This document shows positions 5,261-48,469 of a stretch of DNA of 48,469 nucleotides, piece after piece; the stretch's first letter is position 1; every line of letters starts with the position of its first letter. Source of the DNA: Promethearchaeota archaeon (GTDB taxonomy: Archaea; Asgardarchaeota; Lokiarchaeia; Sigyniarchaeales; SOKP01); assembly GCA_019057865.1 (NCBI GenBank), contig JAHLWP010000034.1, positions 1 to 48,469 on the forward strand. Reading direction: 5' to 3'. The notes under the pieces are model-generated. The model was not told where the DNA came from. It searched no databases and saw only the letters and a program-made list of their open reading frames with translations. The translations under genes were made by a program, and so were the position numbers.

Positions 5261-6373
5261 ATGACCGATATTCATTTTAATAAAGAGAAAGGTTCTCAAT
5301 TAAAATTATTTACTCCAGGACCAGTTCATGTTCCAGAAAGAGTTCTGAAAGAGTTAGCAAAACCAAATGATACACATAGATCTCAAGCTTATTCAGAGAT
5401 GCATCAAATCGCAACAGAAGGACTTCAAAAGTTGCTTTTTACTAAAAACGAATGTTTAATATTTACATCAAGTGCTACAGGTATCATGGAAGCTTGTGTC
5501 AGAAATTTAGTGAAGGATGATGAAAAAGCGTTATTTTTTTCAATTGGGGCTTTTGGAGATCGATGGTACAATATAGGAGTAACGAACGGAAAGAATTCTG
5601 TTAAAGAGGGTGTTGAATGGGGCAAGGCAATAACCCCTGAATTTGCTCAAGAAGCATTAGATAAAGACAATTATTCAGTAGTTTTTATTCAATCAAATGA
5701 AACATCCACTGGAGTTTATAATCCAATTGATGAAGTAGTACCAATTGTTAAGGACACAGGTGCTTTAATATGTGTGGATGCTACTTCTTCAATGGCAGGA
5801 GTAAAAGTGGATGTTGATAGGTTAGGTATAGATGTTTGTTTAGCCTCCGTTCAAAAATGTTTTGCTTTACCACCAGGTCTTGCTGTTTGTTCTGTTTCTC
5901 ATGCCACTTTCGAGAAAGCAGCAGAAGTGAAAAATAGAGGTTTATATTTTGATTTTATTGAATTGAAAAAAAGAAGCGCTAAGCATCAAACTCCAACAAC
6001 TCCACCTATACCACAAATAAGAGGTTTAACTACTCAATTAGATTATATTCTAAATAAAGAAGGTGTGGAGAAAAGATTTGAAAGACATGAACAACTTGGA
6101 AAACGAACACGCGAATGGGTTCGCGATATGGACCTTAAAATGTTTCCTGAGAAAGGATATGAATCAAATACGGTTTCTACCATAAGCAACTCTTTAAATC
6201 TTGATATTCCTAAAATGGTTTCTAAACTCTTAGAAAAGGGATACCGAATTGTTAATGGTTACGGACAACTCGTAAATAAAACATATCGGATTGGGCATAT
6301 GGGGGAAATCCAAATTAAAGATCTTGAAGAAATGTTAAAAGATCTTACGGAGATTATAAACGAGTTAAAATAA
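5261..6373 (+). CDS. class V PLP aminotransferase (serine-pyruvate / archaeal phosphoserine aminotransferase type)
   Basis: FTPGP, NETSTG, VDATSS, SVQKCFALPPG, RIGHMG; adjacent to serA. Confidence 0.88.
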   Translation: MTDIHFNKEKGSQLKLFTPGPVHVPERVLKELAKPNDTHRSQAYSEMHQIATEGLQKLLFTKNECLIFTSSATGIMEACVRNLVKDDEKALFFSIGAFGDRWYNIGVTNGKNSVKEGVEWGKAITPEFAQEALDKDNYSVVFIQSNETSTGVYNPIDEVVPIVKDTGALICVDATSSMAGVKVDVDRLGIDVCLASVQKCFALPPGLAVCSVSHATFEKAAEVKNRGLYFDFIELKKRSAKHQTPTTPPIPQIRGLTTQLDYILNKEGVEKRFERHEQLGKRTREWVRDMDLKMFPEKGYESNTVSTISNSLNLDIPKMVSKLLEKGYRIVNGYGQLVNKTYRIGHMGEIQIKDLEEMLKDLTEIINELK

Positions 6374-6532
6374 AAATAAATTAGTAATTAGTTTATTTAT
6401 CAAAATTATTATATTTCTTCTAAATATTTTTCTAAAAAAAGCTAATTTAATTAAAGATGGACTTTAATAAAATAACACAAACTCTTTATAGATGTGTAAA
6501 CTAAAAAAAATATTCAATTTAATTAAATCCAT

Positions 6533-40554: not shown

Positions 40555-41319
40555 TTATTTTTCTTTTAAGATTTGTTTAACCTTTTCCACTATTGGAGGG
40601 AGTACATCTTCAATTAAATCATCAAATCTTAGATCACATTCATAATCATAGGGTGTTTCGCCTTTATTTAATATTATCAATTTCGCTCCGCTTCTTTTAG
40701 CATAACCAGGCATATTGGCTGCTGGTGTAACAACTAATGATGATCCAACGACAAAAAACACATCCGCATTTTCAGAACGTTTTATTGATTCTTCTAATTC
40801 ATCATATGGAAGGGGATCCCCGAAATTTACAATGCTGGAGATAATTCTTCCTCCACAATTTGGACAAGTTGGTTGATCTTTTCGAACTCGTTGTGTTCTA
40901 TATCCTGGACCCCATTTATTTTTATCCCAACCAGCCTCTTCGAATAACATCTTTTTATTACATGATAAGCACTTTATGAAATATAAATTTCCGTGAAGTT
41001 CACTGAGTATATCAAAAGGGATTCCAGATTTAGCATGTAACCCATCTACATTTTGGGAAATTAAATAGTTTAACTTTCCCATTTCCATCAACTCCACAAT
41101 TGCGTAATGATTAGGATTAGGTTTCACTTGATCCCAAGGAGGGCTTCTTGGTGGAGGACGACCCTGATCTCGTCTAGTCCAAACGCCATCTGGGCCTCTA
41201 TAATCCGGTAATCCGCTACCAGTAGAAATTCCCGCACCAGTAAAAATTACTAATCGTTCTGATTCAGCTATCCATTTAGCAGCAATATCGATTTTTTCTT
41301 TCAATTCCATAAAAATCAA
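40555..41319 (-). CDS. NAD-dependent protein deacylase (sirtuin), class IV-like
   Basis: GAGISTGSGLPDYRGPDGVWT, SQNVDGLH, ELHGN, two CxxC, GSSL.V.PA. Confidence 0.93.
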   Translation of the reverse strand: MIFMELKEKIDIAAKWIAESERLVIFTGAGISTGSGLPDYRGPDGVWTRRDQGRPPPRSPPWDQVKPNPNHYAIVELMEMGKLNYLISQNVDGLHAKSGIPFDILSELHGNLYFIKCLSCNKKMLFEEAGWDKNKWGPGYRTQRVRKDQPTCPNCGGRIISSIVNFGDPLPYDELEESIKRSENADVFFVVGSSLVVTPAANMPGYAKRSGAKLIILNKGETPYDYECDLRFDDLIEDVLPPIVEKVKQILKEK

Positions 41320-41454
41320 TAAATAAAGCGAATATAAAAAGATAACGTCTAAAGATAGTATGACCTTTAAAAATTCTTAAATTATTAGATTGCTCTATTA
41401 GTTCCATCATTTTAAACGAGTATATCGTTTAAGCTAGGATACTGTGTAAAGATT

Positions 41455-42243
41455 TCATGATAGAAAGTCATCTAAAGTTGGATTTTTCATTATATAAGTT
41501 TTTTCATCATTTTTCGATTTATTTATGAATATACTTTTTGAATTACTGTATAATATTTTAGAAACTTGATCTACATCAATTAACTTTATATTTGCAATAG
41601 TTTCTATTATCTTAGGAAAGTCTTCTGGTTTTGTAATAGTACCTTTATACTTATATGGAGCGTTACTTTCTAATAATAGTCTATTTATAGGTATTTTAGA
41701 AATATATTTTTGATATTTCTTGAAATTGATAATGCATTTATTAAATGAAAAATAATAGCCATTTTCAAGAATCTTTTCGATATATTGAATATTTCCACTA
41801 TACCAGTGAAATACTACAAAATTCAGATTAAATGAACTTAAAATTTCTAAGATCTCTTCCTCGGCATTAACTACATGAAGTATAACGATTTTATCATATT
41901 TCTCAGCTATTTTTAATTGTTGTATTAAATATCTAAATTGAACTTTTAAAGAATTAAATTTTCTTAGAAAATCCAATCCACATTCACCAATAATATCAAC
42001 TTTTTCTTTAATAAGGTCTAATATACTACTTATTTCAAATTCGGAATATTTTTTATTTGGATGTAATCCAATACCTAAAAAAATATTCTTCTTTAGAGAT
42101 AATAATTGGTTTAAAAAAGTAAAAGAATTAATATCATCACATAAAGAAACAATGTTTTTTATATTAAAATAAAAATACTCCTTTATAACTGAAAGTGGGG
42201 ATTTAAATTGATCTAAATGTAAATTACAGTCGAAAAATTTCAT
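41455..42243 (-). CDS. qatD: TatD-family nuclease, QatD-like, with degenerate metal ligands
   Basis: GLHP, IGECGLDF, LH, FHWYSG, LLLESNAPY; N-terminal DCNLH. Confidence 0.75.
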   Translation of the reverse strand: MKFFDCNLHLDQFKSPLSVIKEYFYFNIKNIVSLCDDINSFTFLNQLLSLKKNIFLGIGLHPNKKYSEFEISSILDLIKEKVDIIGECGLDFLRKFNSLKVQFRYLIQQLKIAEKYDKIVILHVVNAEEEILEILSSFNLNFVVFHWYSGNIQYIEKILENGYYFSFNKCIINFKKYQKYISKIPINRLLLESNAPYKYKGTITKPEDFPKIIETIANIKLIDVDQVSKILYSNSKSIFINKSKNDEKTYIMKNPTLDDFLS

Positions 42244-42248
42244 TATTT

Positions 42249-43427
42249 CTATTGAGAATAATTAATTTTATATATTCTACTACTTTCATCATAAAAGGCT
42301 GTAAGTTTCCATTCAAAAGAATCTTTCTTAAGAGAGAAAAGAAAGTTATTACCCTGTACAAAAGTAGATAGAAAAATTCTTTCTAGTTCAGGAAAATAAT
42401 GTTTTAAAGACGCTTCAATATCCTCATTGCTAAAAGAATTATCCAGTTTAAAAAGAAACTTATAACATTTATTATCTGTATCAACTTCTATTTCTAAAGA
42501 TTCCCAAAAGTCCGATTCATATAATTTTAAACCCTTTAAACGTGGTCTATTCCATTCTTGAATATTATCACATAATATTAATAAACATCCAAAAGGATTC
42601 TTCAAAAAATTTACATTGATTTTTCTTTGTTTTTCAATTGAATGTATTGCTATAGCACAACAAGCAATATTTAATTCCTGTAAGTATTGAACCTTTAATA
42701 TTTCATTATCTAGAGAATCAATATCTAAATATATTGTATAATGTAAGAATAATGAACTCATTATACCATGATCACGCATTTTATAATTCTCAAGTAATTC
42801 ATTATAAATTATCTTCTTCTGTTCTTCTCGGTCATTGTTTTGCTTCAAAATAAATTTATTATTTTCTCCAATTATAATCCCCTCTGTAAGGATTTTCATA
42901 TAATCCTTAAAAATTTTATCAAGTTCATCAGATATTGTCAATCTAATCTCAGATAACTTTATACCTCCTATTCTTTCAAAATAAGTTCTCTGAATCTCAA
43001 TACCCAAATCAATTAACTTTTCAACCATATATCCAATATCATGATAAAAGGAAATTAAAAACCATGTCCTCAAAAATCTATTCATATTTGAAAAAAAATC
43101 AATCGGGAGACTTTCCACGTTTGCTCTTTCAACAATATAACATCCTAAGAGAAAGATTTGAAAAGAATGAATTAGATGGTCTCTGTAATATAAATATTTA
43201 TACAAAAAATCATCCTCGAATTTTTTCAAATTCATTAAAAATTGACGTGAATTTGAAAATCTTAAGAAATATCGCTCATGAAGTATTTTAAAAAGTTCAA
43301 GAGTTAATTCCCTTCTACGATTGATATTATCTTCATTAATATATTTTTTAATCAAATCTGTACCTAGATCTAGTTTTACATAATTCCAATGAATAGATTT
43401 TTCTAGTAGGAATTTATCTAATGTCAA
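42249..43427 (-). CDS. HD-domain metal-dependent phosphohydrolase
   Basis: RDH..H, HDIGY, DHG, AIH, CDNIQEW.R; TTG start 2 nt after the upstream stop. Confidence 0.8.
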   Translation of the reverse strand: MTLDKFLLEKSIHWNYVKLDLGTDLIKKYINEDNINRRRELTLELFKILHERYFLRFSNSRQFLMNLKKFEDDFLYKYLYYRDHLIHSFQIFLLGCYIVERANVESLPIDFFSNMNRFLRTWFLISFYHDIGYMVEKLIDLGIEIQRTYFERIGGIKLSEIRLTISDELDKIFKDYMKILTEGIIIGENNKFILKQNNDREEQKKIIYNELLENYKMRDHGIMSSLFLHYTIYLDIDSLDNEILKVQYLQELNIACCAIAIHSIEKQRKINVNFLKNPFGCLLILCDNIQEWNRPRLKGLKLYESDFWESLEIEVDTDNKCYKFLFKLDNSFSNEDIEASLKHYFPELERIFLSTFVQGNNFLFSLKKDSFEWKLTAFYDESSRIYKINYSQ

Positions 43428-43429
43428 TT

Positions 43430-44866
43430 TTATATAACACCTATTAAATCTGTGTCTTTTATTCTTTTACGTGTCTCTTCATAAAATTTATTTCTTATTA
43501 TGGTTCTAGTAATCAATTTATTTATTTTCCTATTGTAATAATTCCATATATAATAATCAGCATCTTGGTAGTCTGGATAAGTCTCAAAAAAGTAATACAA
43601 CCCAGTTAACATATCAAGAGCAAATCTCTTTAGTAATTGCCAAATATCCTCATAATATTTACTAATCTGTTCACATTTTTTAACAATAGGACGATATAGA
43701 TCATAATACTTATCCATCCGATGAATTCTTTCTTCTTCACTAATGCCTACATTTCTTCTAAGAGTTTGGTAACAAAACTTAATCAATTCTATAATCATTT
43801 TTGCTTCATCATTTGTATTGATATATGAAATATCTTTAGTAAAAGGATCTCTTTCATTATCAATATAATACCTTTTATCCTCATCACTTTTAGGATCTTT
43901 ATAATCAGGGTCATAGTTGTCATCATCATAATTTCCATATGCATAAGCAGAAAATCGTCTTACATAACATGGAAAACAAAAAAAACATGATTTCTTCTTA
44001 TGATAAAATACAGAACATGAATGAGATCGCTTTAGTATATCCTCTCGAACACTATCCATTAATTCTGCTTTTGTATATTCTCTAAAAGGTAATCTAACTT
44101 TTATTATTTCTTCATTCTCAAAATAGTTATATAAAAAAGTATTGAAAAAAGCTATAAACTCCGGATTTGTTGTATTTGTAAAAGTATGGGAACTTGTAAA
44201 AGGAGGATTAATAGTCAAGGGTCCATTTTCAGTTACTAAAATATTTTTTATCCCTAGAGCATAGTTTATAGGAACTGCATTACATAAATAAAGTAATGTT
44301 CTTGTTTGATTAATATTCATTTTTTCTATTCTATCTTTTCTACCTATATTTCTGATATCTGCTTTACTATAAAATTGGCCATCTACTTCAATAAGACGCA
44401 TTTTCAAATCTTTAATAAAATTCCTTATCATATCTATTGATGGAGTATTTTTATGATATATATGAGTAAAAATAATTTTCTTTTTATTCTTTAATACCCA
44501 ATGATTCGCACCGCACATACTGTCAACTCCCCCAGAGATAAGAATATTAGCATAATAGTCCTCAACATTTTCAGGTGTATCTATTTCATTATCAATTTCA
44601 TCAATTTCTTCAAATTCAACAAAAATCTTCTTTTTAATTCCAGTATACCTATATAATAAAACATTTATTAATCGGTCTAATGGTTTTTTTGAATTTTGCC
44701 AATTCCTAATATTTTTGGTCTCAAATATTAGATTATTATCTTCAGCAAACCTCTCAATGTAATAAATACATTTTCCAAATTGGGGGATCTCTTTTATAAA
44801 ATTAGGTATTTTATTATCAGGAAATAATGGTCTTATGTTCTTAAAAAAGTCATGGGACATTTCCAA
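43430..44866 (-). CDS. qatC: QueC-like PP-loop ligase of the QatC type (start could be ATG 44860, TTG 44866 or ATT 44884)
   Basis: SGGVDS, Q.R..LYL, ENG...INPP, T.TT.P.F, PF...TKAE, SCS...C..C.PC.VRR. Confidence 0.82.
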   Translation of the reverse strand: MEMSHDFFKNIRPLFPDNKIPNFIKEIPQFGKCIYYIERFAEDNNLIFETKNIRNWQNSKKPLDRLINVLLYRYTGIKKKIFVEFEEIDEIDNEIDTPENVEDYYANILISGGVDSMCGANHWVLKNKKKIIFTHIYHKNTPSIDMIRNFIKDLKMRLIEVDGQFYSKADIRNIGRKDRIEKMNINQTRTLLYLCNAVPINYALGIKNILVTENGPLTINPPFTSSHTFTNTTNPEFIAFFNTFLYNYFENEEIIKVRLPFREYTKAELMDSVREDILKRSHSCSVFYHKKKSCFFCFPCYVRRFSAYAYGNYDDDNYDPDYKDPKSDEDKRYYIDNERDPFTKDISYINTNDEAKMIIELIKFCYQTLRRNVGISEEERIHRMDKYYDLYRPIVKKCEQISKYYEDIWQLLKRFALDMLTGLYYFFETYPDYQDADYYIWNYYNRKINKLITRTIIRNKFYEETRKRIKDTDLIGVI

Positions 44867-44886
44867 AATTTCCGAACTTTTAATGG

Positions 44887-45240
44887 TTATCCCTCCAATT
44901 CCTTGAATAGGGATTTAATAGAATTAGCTTGTTTTTTTACAAGTGAGTCAACATACTTTTGGATTTTTTGAATTTCTTCTTGAAATATCTCTTGCGAAAA
45001 AATCTTATTTTTAATAAGAAAGTCTTTAAGTTCTTTAACTGAAGTTCTTATATTTTCTTTTAAATGAGAAATTAATTGTTCTTTGGTTTTACTTGGTAAT
45101 TCTTTAGTCTCGCCTGTAGATTTATCAATATAATAATTAAAGTTTGTACCTGTAAAATCTGTACTCATTATTCTCATAGATTCAGCATATAAATAATCTC
45201 TAACATATTCAATTAAAATATCAACATAATTTTCCGTAAT
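44887..45240 (-). CDS. helical protein, putative C-terminal part of a split QatB-like gene (frame open from ATT 45240)
   Basis: In frame with the upstream MGTAS ORF and separated from it by one TAA; GGAGGGG lies 7 nt before ATT 45240. Confidence 0.55.
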   Translation of the reverse strand: MTENYVDILIEYVRDYLYAESMRIMSTDFTGTNFNYYIDKSTGETKELPSKTKEQLISHLKENIRTSVKELKDFLIKNKIFSQEIFQEEIQKIQKYVDSLVKKQANSIKSLFKELEG

Positions 45241-45456
45241 TTAGATGCCCCTCCGAATATCTTTTGTAGAAATAAATGAATTAGCATCATCTAGAGCATC
45301 CATTATTCCTTGTGGACCGCTTACTTCAAGGGTAGCCCAATAAACAATCCTCGCTGCTGAATCATAGTCACTACTATCAATAAAATCAGAAAATAAAGAA
45401 GAACTATCAATTATTGCCTTATTTTTCCTCTTTCTCCTAACACTCGCAGTTCCCAT
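45241..45456 (-). CDS. 71-aa QatB-like protein beginning MGTASV (putative QueC-type modification substrate)
   Basis: ATG 45456 gives MGTASVRRKRKNK...; QatB N-termini begin MGTS; first gene of the cassette. Confidence 0.6.
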   Translation of the reverse strand: MGTASVRRKRKNKAIIDSSSLFSDFIDSSDYDSAARIVYWATLEVSGPQGIMDALDDANSFISTKDIRRGI

Positions 45457-45683
45457 AAAAGATCGACTTTTGGTAGAAAAGAATATTAATATTTGGTATT
45501 TAAAATATTTAATATTTTCCAAATTTTACTTTTTTGAAAAAAAGGGTTTTAATATAATAATTCTTAAAAATAAGTAAAAAAAGGATTTAAAAGATGAAAT
45601 ACAGGAATTAATAATGCTCCAATTACGCTACCTATTAAAACAAAGTTTGTATAAAAAATTTTATTAATAAAAACCTAATGGTG

Positions 45684-48469
45684 TTATAATATCTTTTCAT
45701 AAATCTTATGAAGATCGCCAGGCGATTTTTTACCTAATTTGCGAATTTGCGCCATTTGTTTAAGCGTAGGTCTCGCTATTTCCATTTTATAGACCCATTT
45801 TTTTACAGTTCGTTCTGTTATTTTTACTTTAAAAATTTCAAAGTGTAAATCAGCAATTTCTTCATAAGTCATATACCAAACTAATTGTTCTAACTGTTCT
45901 TTCGTAATCATAAACTTTTGCCGGCTTTGTGCGAAATTTCTCAATCTTTCCATTCTTTCTTGATGTTCTTCAAGTCTAATTCTTTTACTTGGTAAACTTT
46001 TTTGATAATTATCTAACATTTCATTGAATAATTCAGCCCCTAAAGTTAATCGCCAATAAATACCATCTTTATTTTTATTTTGTCTTACTTCATACCTAAT
46101 ATTAAATTTATTTTTAATGTTTTCAAGAAATCTTTTACTTTTTGAATCAATTTGAGAAGTTCCAGTTTCCCCATCTCCATCAAAAAAGCCAAGAAGGAAT
46201 GCTAAATATAATTGACGGTTCTTCCTAATATTTTTAAAATCAGGTAATTTTATACGATGCGATTTTTTACCGATATTCCAACCTAGTTCAATTAAAGTAT
46301 TTGGGAAGTCCATTCTTGAAAAACTGATTCTTATTCTTACAAAACCTTTCTTAAGATTATCATATTCTACATACTTTGGATTAAATCCTATAGCTTCGAT
46401 GAATCGAATTAATAGAATCTCATCTTTTTTATTGCATCCCACACCCCATTCTAAATATGGGTACCCTTCATGTTTAATTAGAGAAAGCCATCCTTCAGCA
46501 TATAACCATCCAAGCCAGTAAGCTTTTTCCTTAGTATCAATTTTTTTAAAGTAATTAAGATTGAAATCTGGGTGTTTATCTAATATTGATCCATAAGTAT
46601 ATTGTCTTAGAGTATTTTCATTTTTGTATTTTTCAAATAATAATATAATATTATGAGGTATATCCCTCCCTTTTTTCTTTAATGAAGTTTTAAGGTTTGA
46701 TAAATAACTTTGTAATTGCTCTAATGAAATTTCTGTTTTATCAGAAATTTTACTTTTAACGTGGGATTCGGTTTCTCCAAATAGCTTGCTTAAAACTCTA
46801 TTCTTAACTTTTCCTGCATAAATCTCATTGGTAGAAAGAAGAGGAGCTAACTCTATTTTAATCTCATTTAAAAAGTCAACAGCTTTATAATTAAATTTGT
46901 TAATCTTTTCTTTAATTGAAAAATAATCTTCCAACATTTTTATTTTAATATATCTATAGAAATCCCAGCCCCATTTGACATAATTTTTGGTATGCAACTT
47001 AAAAGATACACCAAAAATTTCAATTAATTGATCAGTATCCAGTTTACTCAGAAGTAATATTAAATTTTTTCTTTCTTGATTGCTTATAATCTCCTTATTA
47101 ATGATCTGTATGATTTTATCTTTATAATTTTCCTTCAAGTTCTTTATAGAGGCTATACTTTCATTTAAAAATTTCTTCCAATTTTCACCCTTTCTTAAAT
47201 TTTTTATTTCAGATAATTTTTTTGAGGCTTTTTTAGAGATTTCATATTTTTTAGACAGATTTCTGAGAAATTTATATTTTATTTCACTAATTAGCGCAGG
47301 ATTCCACCAATGACGTTCTTGAAAGTATGCTTTAAATCCGCTTATATTCAAATATATATGTAAGTGAATTAGATCGATATGATGGAGTCTGTTTATAATA
47401 GAGATTATTTTATCTCTTTCTTTTTCAGTTAATTCTCCGTTTTTATATTTTTTATATAATTCTTCCAAATCTTCATAGTCTTGGAAATTACAGAGTATCT
47501 CTTTCAGAATTTCTTTAAGTTCAGAGCTGAGCATCTCTTCTGGAGATCCCTCTATCCACTTTTTAAGTTTCTTTTGCCATTTCTCCTCTTTTAGTTCCTT
47601 CTCTTCTAATTCTTCAGTTTTTAATTCTTGCTGTTCTAACCATTGGCTAAATCCTTTTGTCTCTTTTCCAGCATATATCGGTCTTTTACCAGTTTCTTGG
47701 CGATATAATTGCTGGAGTTTATTATACTCTTCTTCTGTTTCTTCACTTTCTGACTTTTTTTCTTTCTCTATAAATTCCTTGCTTTTTTCTTGATAAGACT
47801 CTAGTTCATCTACTTCGATGTTATCTAATCCTGTGTAGATCTCCTCTTCTGCTTCCTTTTTTTCCATTACTTGTTGGGTTTCACTATTCTCTTCGTTATT
47901 ATGAATAAAAATTTGCCCAAATTGCTCTTGTTCTTCAAGATCCAAATATTCTCCATCAATTTCAACTTGTTTGATTCCTGATTCTTCACTCACATCGTTT
48001 TCTTGTTGACTTTCTTCTATTTCATTTAAGAAGAAATTATCTGCGATTTCTTCCATTTTTTCATCGATTTCTTCTTGAAATTTTCCTTGTTGGTATAATT
48101 CTTCTTCATTATCTGCAAGATATTCTATCGCACCTACTCTTTCGATCTCTTCTCTGGTATCCTCTTCATCTCCTTCATCGTCATGGTCAACTGACTTTAA
48201 TTTTTCTTTCTCTTGTTTTTCATAGAGCTGTTCAACACTCTTTAAGAGTGTATAAGTTTCTTCTGCTTCCTGCATTAAATTCCTTATTTCTTCAGAACTC
48301 TTCCCTTCTTGTTCATATTGTTCATATTTTTCCCATAGATAATCAAATTCTTCTGGTTCTATCTCTGCCGCTTCTGTTATATCATTGAGATTTTCCTCTT
48401 GTGTTTCACTAGAATGTATTTCCTCAATATGCTCTTCCTTCTCTTGTTCCTCCGAGTTTAGTTGCTCTT
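45684..48469 (-). CDS. large acidic protein with a C-terminal double-motif LAGLIDADG endonuclease-like domain and HTH; 5' end lies beyond the window
   Basis: Frame stays open from 48467; E/Q-rich N-terminal region; KAYWLGWLYAEG and LAFLLGFFDGDG; C-terminal MTYEEIA...TVKKW. Confidence 0.8.
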   Translation of the reverse strand, partial: EQLNSEEQEKEEHIEEIHSSETQEENLNDITEAAEIEPEEFDYLWEKYEQYEQEGKSSEEIRNLMQEAEETYTLLKSVEQLYEKQEKEKLKSVDHDDEGDEEDTREEIERVGAIEYLADNEEELYQQGKFQEEIDEKMEEIADNFFLNEIEESQQENDVSEESGIKQVEIDGEYLDLEEQEQFGQIFIHNNEENSETQQVMEKKEAEEEIYTGLDNIEVDELESYQEKSKEFIEKEKKSESEETEEEYNKLQQLYRQETGKRPIYAGKETKGFSQWLEQQELKTEELEEKELKEEKWQKKLKKWIEGSPEEMLSSELKEILKEILCNFQDYEDLEELYKKYKNGELTEKERDKIISIINRLHHIDLIHLHIYLNISGFKAYFQERHWWNPALISEIKYKFLRNLSKKYEISKKASKKLSEIKNLRKGENWKKFLNESIASIKNLKENYKDKIIQIINKEIISNQERKNLILLLSKLDTDQLIEIFGVSFKLHTKNYVKWGWDFYRYIKIKMLEDYFSIKEKINKFNYKAVDFLNEIKIELAPLLSTNEIYAGKVKNRVLSKLFGETESHVKSKISDKTEISLEQLQSYLSNLKTSLKKKGRDIPHNIILLFEKYKNENTLRQYTYGSILDKHPDFNLNYFKKIDTKEKAYWLGWLYAEGWLSLIKHEGYPYLEWGVGCNKKDEILLIRFIEAIGFNPKYVEYDNLKKGFVRIRISFSRMDFPNTLIELGWNIGKKSHRIKLPDFKNIRKNRQLYLAFLLGFFDGDGETGTSQIDSKSKRFLENIKNKFNIRYEVRQNKNKDGIYWRLTLGAELFNEMLDNYQKSLPSKRIRLEEHQERMERLRNFAQSRQKFMITKEQLEQLVWYMTYEEIADLHFEIFKVKITERTVKKWVYKMEIARPTLKQMAQIRKLGKKSPGDLHKIYEKIL

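Follow-up and report, generated by a model that had tools for sequence, protein, structure and literature searches.

Two abutting reading frames head a five-gene cassette

The window analyzed here, a stretch of 48,469 nucleotides from an Asgard archaeon, carries on its minus strand five nearly gapless genes in the order ORF1, ORF2, a QatC-like gene, a gene for a 392-aa HD protein and a TatD/QatD gene. The features to which we refer throughout are as follows.

45244..45456 (-): ORF1, 71 codons, from the ATG at 45456-45454 (MGTASVRRKRKNK...KDIRRGI) to the stop TAA at 45243-45241
45248..45254 (-): SD-like GGAGGGG, within the final codons of ORF1 (RRG = Arg-Arg-Gly), 7 nt before the ORF2 ATT
44887..45240 (-): ORF2, 117 codons, from the ATT at 45240-45238 (TENYVDILIEYVRDYLYAESMRIMSTDF...; ITENYVDILIEYVRDYLYAESMRIMSTDF…ELEG) to the stop TAA at 44889-44887
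44891..44896 (-): SD-like GGAGGG, within the final codons of ORF2, 6 nt before the ATT heading the QatC-like gene
43430..44884 (-): QatC-like QueC-family PP-loop enzyme (PADLOC QatC, Pfam QueC, PDB 9vlk/9zee)
42249..43427 (-): 392-aa HD-superfamily protein, candidate effector, between qatC and qatD (from invariant residues and AF2/VIA)
41455..42243 (-): TatD-family/QatD-like gene at the end of the cassette (PADLOC QatD, Pfam TatD_DNase)

ORF1 and ORF2 share one frame of 189 codons, interrupted only by a TAA, and the ATT of ORF2 follows that stop directly and in phase. The 93-aa ORF (from TTG 45522) and the 96-aa ORF (from ATG 45177) that were originally listed here are mechanical ORF calls. 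A first-pass annotation of this DNA had described the region as a QatB-like gene divided by one in-frame TAA, and had preferred a genuine split (a small RiPP-like substrate peptide plus a 117-aa partner started at ATT) over a nonsense mutation or an assembly error. When we re-read the sequence, all of its coordinates proved correct on the minus strand, and the GGAGGGG motif was found where it had been placed, at 45254-45248.

Related loci point to a gene boundary between ORF1 and ORF2

A search with the QatC-like protein recovered 14 homologues, 43-87% identical, and the surrounding DNA was examined for 11 of them. The same block, formed by a small ORF, a second ORF, a QatC-like gene and a gene for a protein of about 392 aa, is carried by 12 other distinct metagenomic loci, a recurrence greater than chance would give. 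The 392-aa protein is present in every related locus whose contig extends that far, the TatD gene in most of them, and the flanking genes vary from one locus to another. ORF1 is 71 aa long in ten of the distinct loci and 69 aa in two, and its N-terminus reads MGTA[SG] in 12/12.

The junction between the two genes takes several forms. In the window and in loci L003-5, L006, L007, L012/13, L014 (where the stop is TAG), L015/16 and L019, one stop is followed at once by ORF2 in the same frame. In L008/9 and L010/11 the stop overlaps ORF2 as TAATT and ORF2 lies in another frame; L017 has a 5-nt spacer, with ORF2 again in another frame, and L018 has three consecutive stops, TGA-TGA-TAG. One allele, with ORF1 and ORF2 95-96% identical to those studied here, is represented by three independent assemblies (L003, L004 and L005), and all three have the same TAA as the window.

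We also built a read-through profile from an alignment of the eight in-frame loci translated with table 6. An hmmsearch with this profile against 1.84 billion representative proteins returned 54 matches at E<=0.001, of which 42 (43-100 aa) cover positions 1-74 only and 12 (73-114 aa) cover positions 73-188 only. The first-pass annotation had suggested checking whether homologues are fused or split: all 54 are split, and none of them (0/54) spans both halves. A word-based homologue search using the read-through protein returned nothing. The dN/dS ratio was 0.04-0.36 for ORF1 and 0.06-0.56 for codons 2-21 of ORF2; by this measure, both genes were shown to be under purifying selection.

Programmed read-through of the TAA, for which the in-frame layout would have been selected and which would yield a fused 189-aa QatB-like protein beside the free 71-aa product, is in keeping with the eight of 12 other distinct loci that, like the window, have ORF2 in frame 0 right after a single stop, and with the one compact unit predicted by the read-through structure model described below. 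Because the junction geometry differs between loci, however, a fused product cannot be the conserved outcome, and neither read-through nor frameshifting can be the conserved mechanism. Fusion by read-through is impossible in four loci, namely L008/L009 and L010 (another frame), L017 (spacer and another frame) and L018 (three stops). Moreover, an SD motif followed by ATT or TTG at the junction accounts for the adjacency through translational coupling, and we identified no read-through context or structure. We therefore consider read-through very improbable. The shared frame and the single stop could also suggest that one 189-codon qatB-like gene has been interrupted by a nonsense mutation or by an error of sequencing or assembly, making the locus a pseudogene or an artefact, but the varied junctions rule this out for practical purposes, as do the same stop in three independent assemblies of a near-identical allele, the recurrence of a 69-71-aa ORF1 in 12 distinct loci (four with incompatible frames or multiple stops), the absence of a fused homologue from 1.84e9 proteins and the purifying selection on ORF1 and ORF2.

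An alternative genetic code was dropped as an explanation, as TAA, TAG and TGA each end ORF1 in different loci; it is also contradicted by the normal ORFs that fill the window under table 11.

The comparative data, from 12 loci and the profile search, thus strongly support the genuine two-gene split that the first-pass annotation had preferred, and indicate that the TAA is a true gene boundary and that ORF1 and ORF2 are two separate genes. Its description of a divided QatB-like gene, which implies a gene that was once fused, fared less well: we found no fused homologue among the 1.84 billion representatives and no similarity to QatB.

ORF2 and the QatC-like gene probably start at ATT

In every locus a stop in the ORF2 frame lies 0-6 codons upstream, which limits ORF2 initiation to a few codons. 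At the codon homologous to the ATT of the window, nine of the 12 other loci have ATT, two have TTG and one has GTT. The first 21 residues of ORF2 precede its first ATG in the window, and yet they are well conserved, with Y5 invariant and I6, L9 and Y12 nearly so. Further ORF2 homologues, recovered in the search of 1.84 billion proteins, for which canonical starts are called at the position of the ATT (MTKDYIDIL, MENEYIDTL, MSEYIEIL, MNEYLKFL and MTEKYVETL), begin M-[TSEN]-E-x-Y. In most loci an SD-like element (GGAGGGG/GGAGG(GG), AGGAGGGG, AAGGTGAT or AAGGAG) precedes the ORF2 start codon by 6-9 nt, and it is kept in L012 despite a change of the encoded residues to Glu-Gly-Asp (EGD).

At L018:608-619 the sequence reads TGA TGA TAG, followed by GTT where the other loci have ATT or TTG. 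ORF2 of this locus must start elsewhere than at the homologous GTT codon, and the nearest candidates are an ATT at 632 and a TTG at 638.

SD motifs at start-codon spacing were also counted genome-wide, over the first 12 codon positions of every stop-to-stop frame that reached 120 codons, leaving out codons followed within 17 nt by a canonical start triplet. The fractions of codons with such a motif were as follows.

ATG: 10.2%
TTG: 9.9%
GTG: 6.6%
ATT: 6.0% (36/599)
All other non-canonical codons: 2.1%

Compared with the other non-canonical codons, ATT had an odds ratio of 3.0 (Fisher p 1e-7). These counts suggest that a few dozen genes of this genome may use non-canonical starts and may have been shortened by gene callers.

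Initiation of ORF2 at ATT 45240 is well supported by these observations, because the codon is conserved, canonical starts occur at the same position in other homologues and ATT is linked to SD motifs across the genome. The 117-aa partner starting at ATT behind an SD motif, as first proposed from the letters alone, is thereby supported by both the comparison and the statistics. Bacterial infC has an AUU start codon, and ORF2 has in common with such coupled non-AUG-start genes a near-cognate ATT that lies behind a strong SD and abuts an upstream stop. In Asgard archaea, by contrast, we infer the use of ATT here from comparison and statistics only.

The next gene of the cassette presents the same arrangement. 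The N-terminus [M]KSSEIL of QatC is headed by ATG in L014/L015, by GTG in L012 and by TTG in L008/L010, and in the window and L003 it is headed by the ATT at 44884-44882, behind GGAGGG and 6 nt. The TTG starts of L008 and L010 are preceded by GGAGGT at the same spacing as GGAGGG in the window. Since this ATT aligns with the ATG, GTG or TTG starts of other loci, the most likely start of the QatC-like gene is ATT 44884-44882 (484 aa), TTG 44866 and ATG 44860 being less likely. Taken with the genome-wide signal, the two neighbouring ATT starts warn that genes in such genomes are shortened or overlooked by standard gene callers.

ATA was also raised in the genome-wide count, at 4.5%. Elsewhere in the genome (G000), examples of ATT with an SD motif lie at C54:118621, C60:893 and C65:6128, all on the plus strand.

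The cassette resembles a Qat system with an HD enzyme in place of QatA

The QatC-like protein, of 478-484 aa, matched the PADLOC QatC model (9.7e-18) and Pfam QueC; among PDB sequences it matched only the QatC entries 9vlk and 9zee. Across 13 sequences the motifs SGGxDS (S117-G-G-x-D-S), ExG (E219-x-G221) and P(x)4TK (P266...T271-K272) are invariant, as are C290/C300/C303/C306 and R309 of the Cys/Arg zinc motif; both the profile and these motifs are thus those of QatC (QueC-family, PF06508 cluster 2). The last gene of the cassette has the profile of QatD, with PADLOC QatD at 3.6e-30 and Pfam TatD_DNase at 4.8e-49.

The protein encoded between these two has no Pfam family, the Pfam HD match not being significant, and no PDB sequence match. 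In ten homologues, however, the residues RDH..H, HD, H, H and D are invariant (H84, H87, H129-D130, H220, H262 and D287), and the AF2 model (pLDDT 84.7, pTM 0.88) retrieved nearly exclusively HD-superfamily chains among the top 50 in VIA, with Z up to 10.9. These included the PPX/GppA C-terminal (HD-like) domain (Z 10.9), cyclic-nucleotide phosphodiesterases (Z 9-10), and also YhaM, HD-GYP, SAMHD1 and Cas3-HD. The H...HD...H...H...D ligands thus lie on a predicted HD helical fold, and we read the 392-aa protein as a putative HD phosphohydrolase or phosphodiesterase. It is probably the effector of the cassette, taking the place of QatA in the operon. The model also has a C-terminal beta-rich domain (strands 308-391) after the HD-superfamily domain.

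In 2020, Gao et al. are said to have defined QatABCD by a KAP ATPase (QatA), QatB, a QueC-like QatC and a TatD protein (QatD). The cassette has in common with QatABCD a QatC-like and a QatD-like gene in one tight operon within a variable, island-like neighbourhood. It differs in its 392-aa HD-superfamily protein between qatC and qatD and in its lack of QatA: we found no QatA-type (KAP-family) ATPase in the conserved block, either here or in the related loci. The host differs as well, an Asgard archaeon here, whereas the QatC cluster has been described as mainly bacterial (PMC13329287). The cassette is therefore best described as a Qat-type variant in an Asgard archaeon, in which a two-chain QatB analogue accompanies a QatC-like enzyme, QatD and an HD enzyme that replaces QatA. 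None of the papers searched names Asgard together with QatABCD.

ORF1 is a candidate substrate with a QatB-like N-terminus

ORF1 opens with an invariant MGTA, continues as a basic, Ser-rich and variable stretch of about 25 residues, and finishes with two predicted helices whose last residues are RRG[IL]. The ORF2 protein is helical, apart from one short hairpin. An AF2 model of the read-through form, made from the 8-sequence alignment with the two chains covalently joined, gave one compact helical unit (pLDDT 82.7, pTM 0.80), which suggests that ORF1 and ORF2 pack together, although the covalent link biases the model towards this result.

Similarity to QatB was sought in several ways. Neither ORF1, ORF2 nor their read-through form matched QatB at E<=0.01 when scanned with hmmscan against PADLOC, and when the entire genome was translated in six frames and searched with PDLC02213 (E<=10) and PDLC02212 (E<=1), nothing matched at the ORF1/ORF2 locus. 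Profiles of ORF1 and ORF2 found no QatB chain among the PDB sequences. With the read-through AF2 model, Foldseek returned no match at E<=0.001 and VIA returned only generic helical matches (Z<=6.6), in libraries that extend to 2026-04-08 and may lack QatB chains. Weak coiled-coil-type matches of the ORF1 and ORF2 profiles to RRF, GajB and Rpb6 were regarded as compositional.

Because no similarity in sequence or fold was detected, the resemblance of ORF1/ORF2 to QatB would be positional and functional: a pair located upstream of qatC, with a Met-Gly-Thr tail and a helical body of unknown fold. Position and tail are both consistent. ORF1, ORF2 and QatC adjoin one another in the window as in every related locus, so that the pair lies immediately upstream of qatC in one operon, and the Met-Gly-Thr N-terminus on an extended tail, known as Met-Gly-Thr-(Ser) in QatB, is found in ORF1 of 12/12 loci. 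The earlier proposal that Met removal would expose Gly-Thr, as at the MGTS N-termini of QatB, agrees with this MGTA start.

In QatB, the MGTS motif is conserved, the G2D mutation and deletions of the tail abolish defence, and QatBC suffices against some phages (PMC13279940). Edman degradation placed Gly at the N-terminus, and this Gly2 is essential and carries NDG (PMC13279940, PMC13376578, PMC13639016); the NDG-modified GTSKAY peptide of QatB was detected by LC-MS/MS (PMC13639016). Compared with bacterial QatB (P. aeruginosa, E. coli, A. baumannii; PDB 9zee, 9vlk), ORF1/ORF2 likewise lies directly upstream of a QueC-family QatC and combines Met-Gly-Thr on a flexible basic tail with an all-helical body of unknown fold. 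It differs in being two polypeptides of 71 + 117 aa (188 aa), the second starting at ATT, where QatB has about 265 aa and 10 helices, in missing the Pro16/Trp18 tail motif, and in matching no QatB model in PADLOC, PDB sequence or fold.

A second parallel is type IV CBASS, in which the QueC-family enzyme Cap9 modifies the Gly2 amine of the CD-NTase, according to Wassarman et al. 2025 as cited in PMC13279940. In both cases a QueC-family enzyme is encoded beside a Gly2-bearing partner, but the partner here is a 71-aa protein without a nucleotidyltransferase domain, and the enzyme belongs to the long QatC type rather than to the minimal Cap9 type.

The ORF1 family extends beyond Qat cassettes

The search of 1.84 billion proteins yielded 42 ORF1-type clusters against 12 ORF2-type clusters. 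About half of the ORF1-type clusters begin with MG (MGT, MGN, MGG, MGY), and the others with MY, MN, MA, MT and so on, followed by a conserved [AV]-P-R-K-x-R-K-x-P-x-I motif; many members of the family end in RRGL. The conservation of Gly2, on which the substrate proposal of the first-pass annotation had been made to depend, thus holds among the cassette-linked ORF1s, where M1, G2, T3 and A4 are invariant, and fails in the wider family, about half of which is without Gly2. The RiPP-like label is also loose, as ORF1 appears to be a folded, helical small protein with wider relatives.

Three relatives without Gly2 could be placed in context. One, of 70 aa (MYVIPKKPRR...NANSFIKRKKLRRGL, ending …LRRGL), lies at L026:5986-6198 in the 93-kb viral contig IMGVR_UViG_3300017963_000016, where an unannotated 739-aa gene overlaps it in ATGA fashion. 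In L022 the next gene encodes a phage-type Dam methylase (L022:4238-5061), and the third relative is that of L021. QatC was not seen in the sequence examined around the ORF1 relatives in L026, L022 or L021, that of L021 being short. In L026 and L021, the gene after the relative showed no similarity to ORF2, and two of three scans of viral contigs found nothing. Thus, the small ORF1 fold exists outside Qat cassettes, with the strict MGTA start marking the cassette-linked branch, and its Gly2-less relatives in other contexts imply a function independent of N-terminal modification.

These relatives bear on whether ORF1 is a substrate at all. It might instead be a small basic helical protein that binds nucleic acid or regulates, shared with archaeal viruses or mobile elements, in which case the QatC-like enzyme would act elsewhere and MGTA would be incidental. 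The basic R-K-x-R-K motif of the wider family, which often lacks Gly2, would fit such a role, as would the members found in a 93-kb viral contig and beside a phage-type Dam methylase with no QatC seen nearby, and the lack of detectable homology of ORF1/ORF2 to QatB. Against it, MGTA is invariant in all QatC-linked loci while the next 25 or so residues vary, it agrees with the MGTS rule of QatB (PMC13279940), and no other protein of the cassette has Gly2. We regard this non-substrate role as unlikely, and favour ORF1 as a candidate N-terminal substrate of the QatC-like enzyme.

A model for a two-chain QatB analogue

The reasons for favouring a substrate role are the invariant MGTA, the sole Gly2 of the cassette, the precedent of QatB, the invariant QatC motifs, the compact structure model and the presence of precursor genes in the host (see below). 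Our model, to which we assign a probability of roughly 0.6 as a whole, is that coupled ORF1 and ORF2 head a five-gene, Qat-like defence cassette without QatA, in which Gly2 of ORF1 is modified by the QatC-like enzyme. Ribosomes that end ORF1 at the TAA, or that are recruited by GGAGGGG, would initiate ORF2 at the ATT. Methionine aminopeptidase would expose Gly2 of the 71-aa ORF1 product, whose two helices would dock on the helical ORF2 protein, its proposed partner or scaffold, to form a two-chain QatB analogue. The QatC-like PP-loop enzyme would then conjugate ATP-activated 7-deazaguanine carboxylate (CDG) to the Gly2 amine, a step that we modelled on the reports for QatB and for the CD-NTases of type IV CBASS. 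Finally, the modified ORF1/ORF2 complex would control the HD and TatD enzymes during virus infection.

A variant of this scheme, which we consider rather improbable, has QatC tag a free-standing 8-kDa ORF1 at Gly2, upon which ORF1 leaves the ORF2 scaffold and switches on HD/TatD; the viral, Gly2-less RRGL relatives would then be unmodifiable decoys or the proteins being imitated. A decoy or mimic relationship between the ORF1 family and viruses is speculation at this stage.

To our knowledge, protein deazaguanylation by QueC-family enzymes was first described in 2025-2026. The cassette extends Qat-type systems to Asgard archaea. If the favoured model holds, with ORF1 as the modified chain of a two-chain analogue, a separate 71-aa protein bearing Gly2 would be a minimal substrate that can be purified alone for biochemistry and structure, and the split genes would set the tail apart from the scaffold genetically. 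The HD enzyme found instead of the QatA ATPase points to a different output module.

The cassette in its host genome

The host genome (4.26 Mb, about 30% GC, 99.7% complete) encodes actin (444 bits) and three paralogues, as would be expected of an Asgard archaeon. QatC was not found in the 36 genomes of the same genus that were sampled, and one weak QueC-like match was all that 60 relatives yielded in a search for QatC. The ORF1 profile had no match in 399 other genomes of the phylum, and a search of GTDB genomes for related loci, with QatC or with the ORF1 sub-alignment, found nothing. GC content is 25-27% in the cassette (41000-46000 of the window), compared with 28-32% elsewhere in the window. 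The cassette thus appears to be accessory in its host genome. Its neighbours are a Sir2 gene and a gene whose large acidic product exceeds 860 aa and contains a LAGLIDADG domain; the low GC and these neighbours fit an acquired island.

Sequences for arcTGT, QueD and a QueC-like protein were found in the genome, which makes it plausible, at the level of gene content, that the 7-deazaguanine precursor is available to the host. The housekeeping queC and queD matches, at G000:C53:5697-6390, look fragmentary. The QueC match is confined to model positions 136-209 and sits in an open frame of 92 aa, and QueD is divided between neighbouring pieces at 5969-6067 and 6076-6390. This fragmentation could have arisen through frameshifts, non-canonical starts or divergence.
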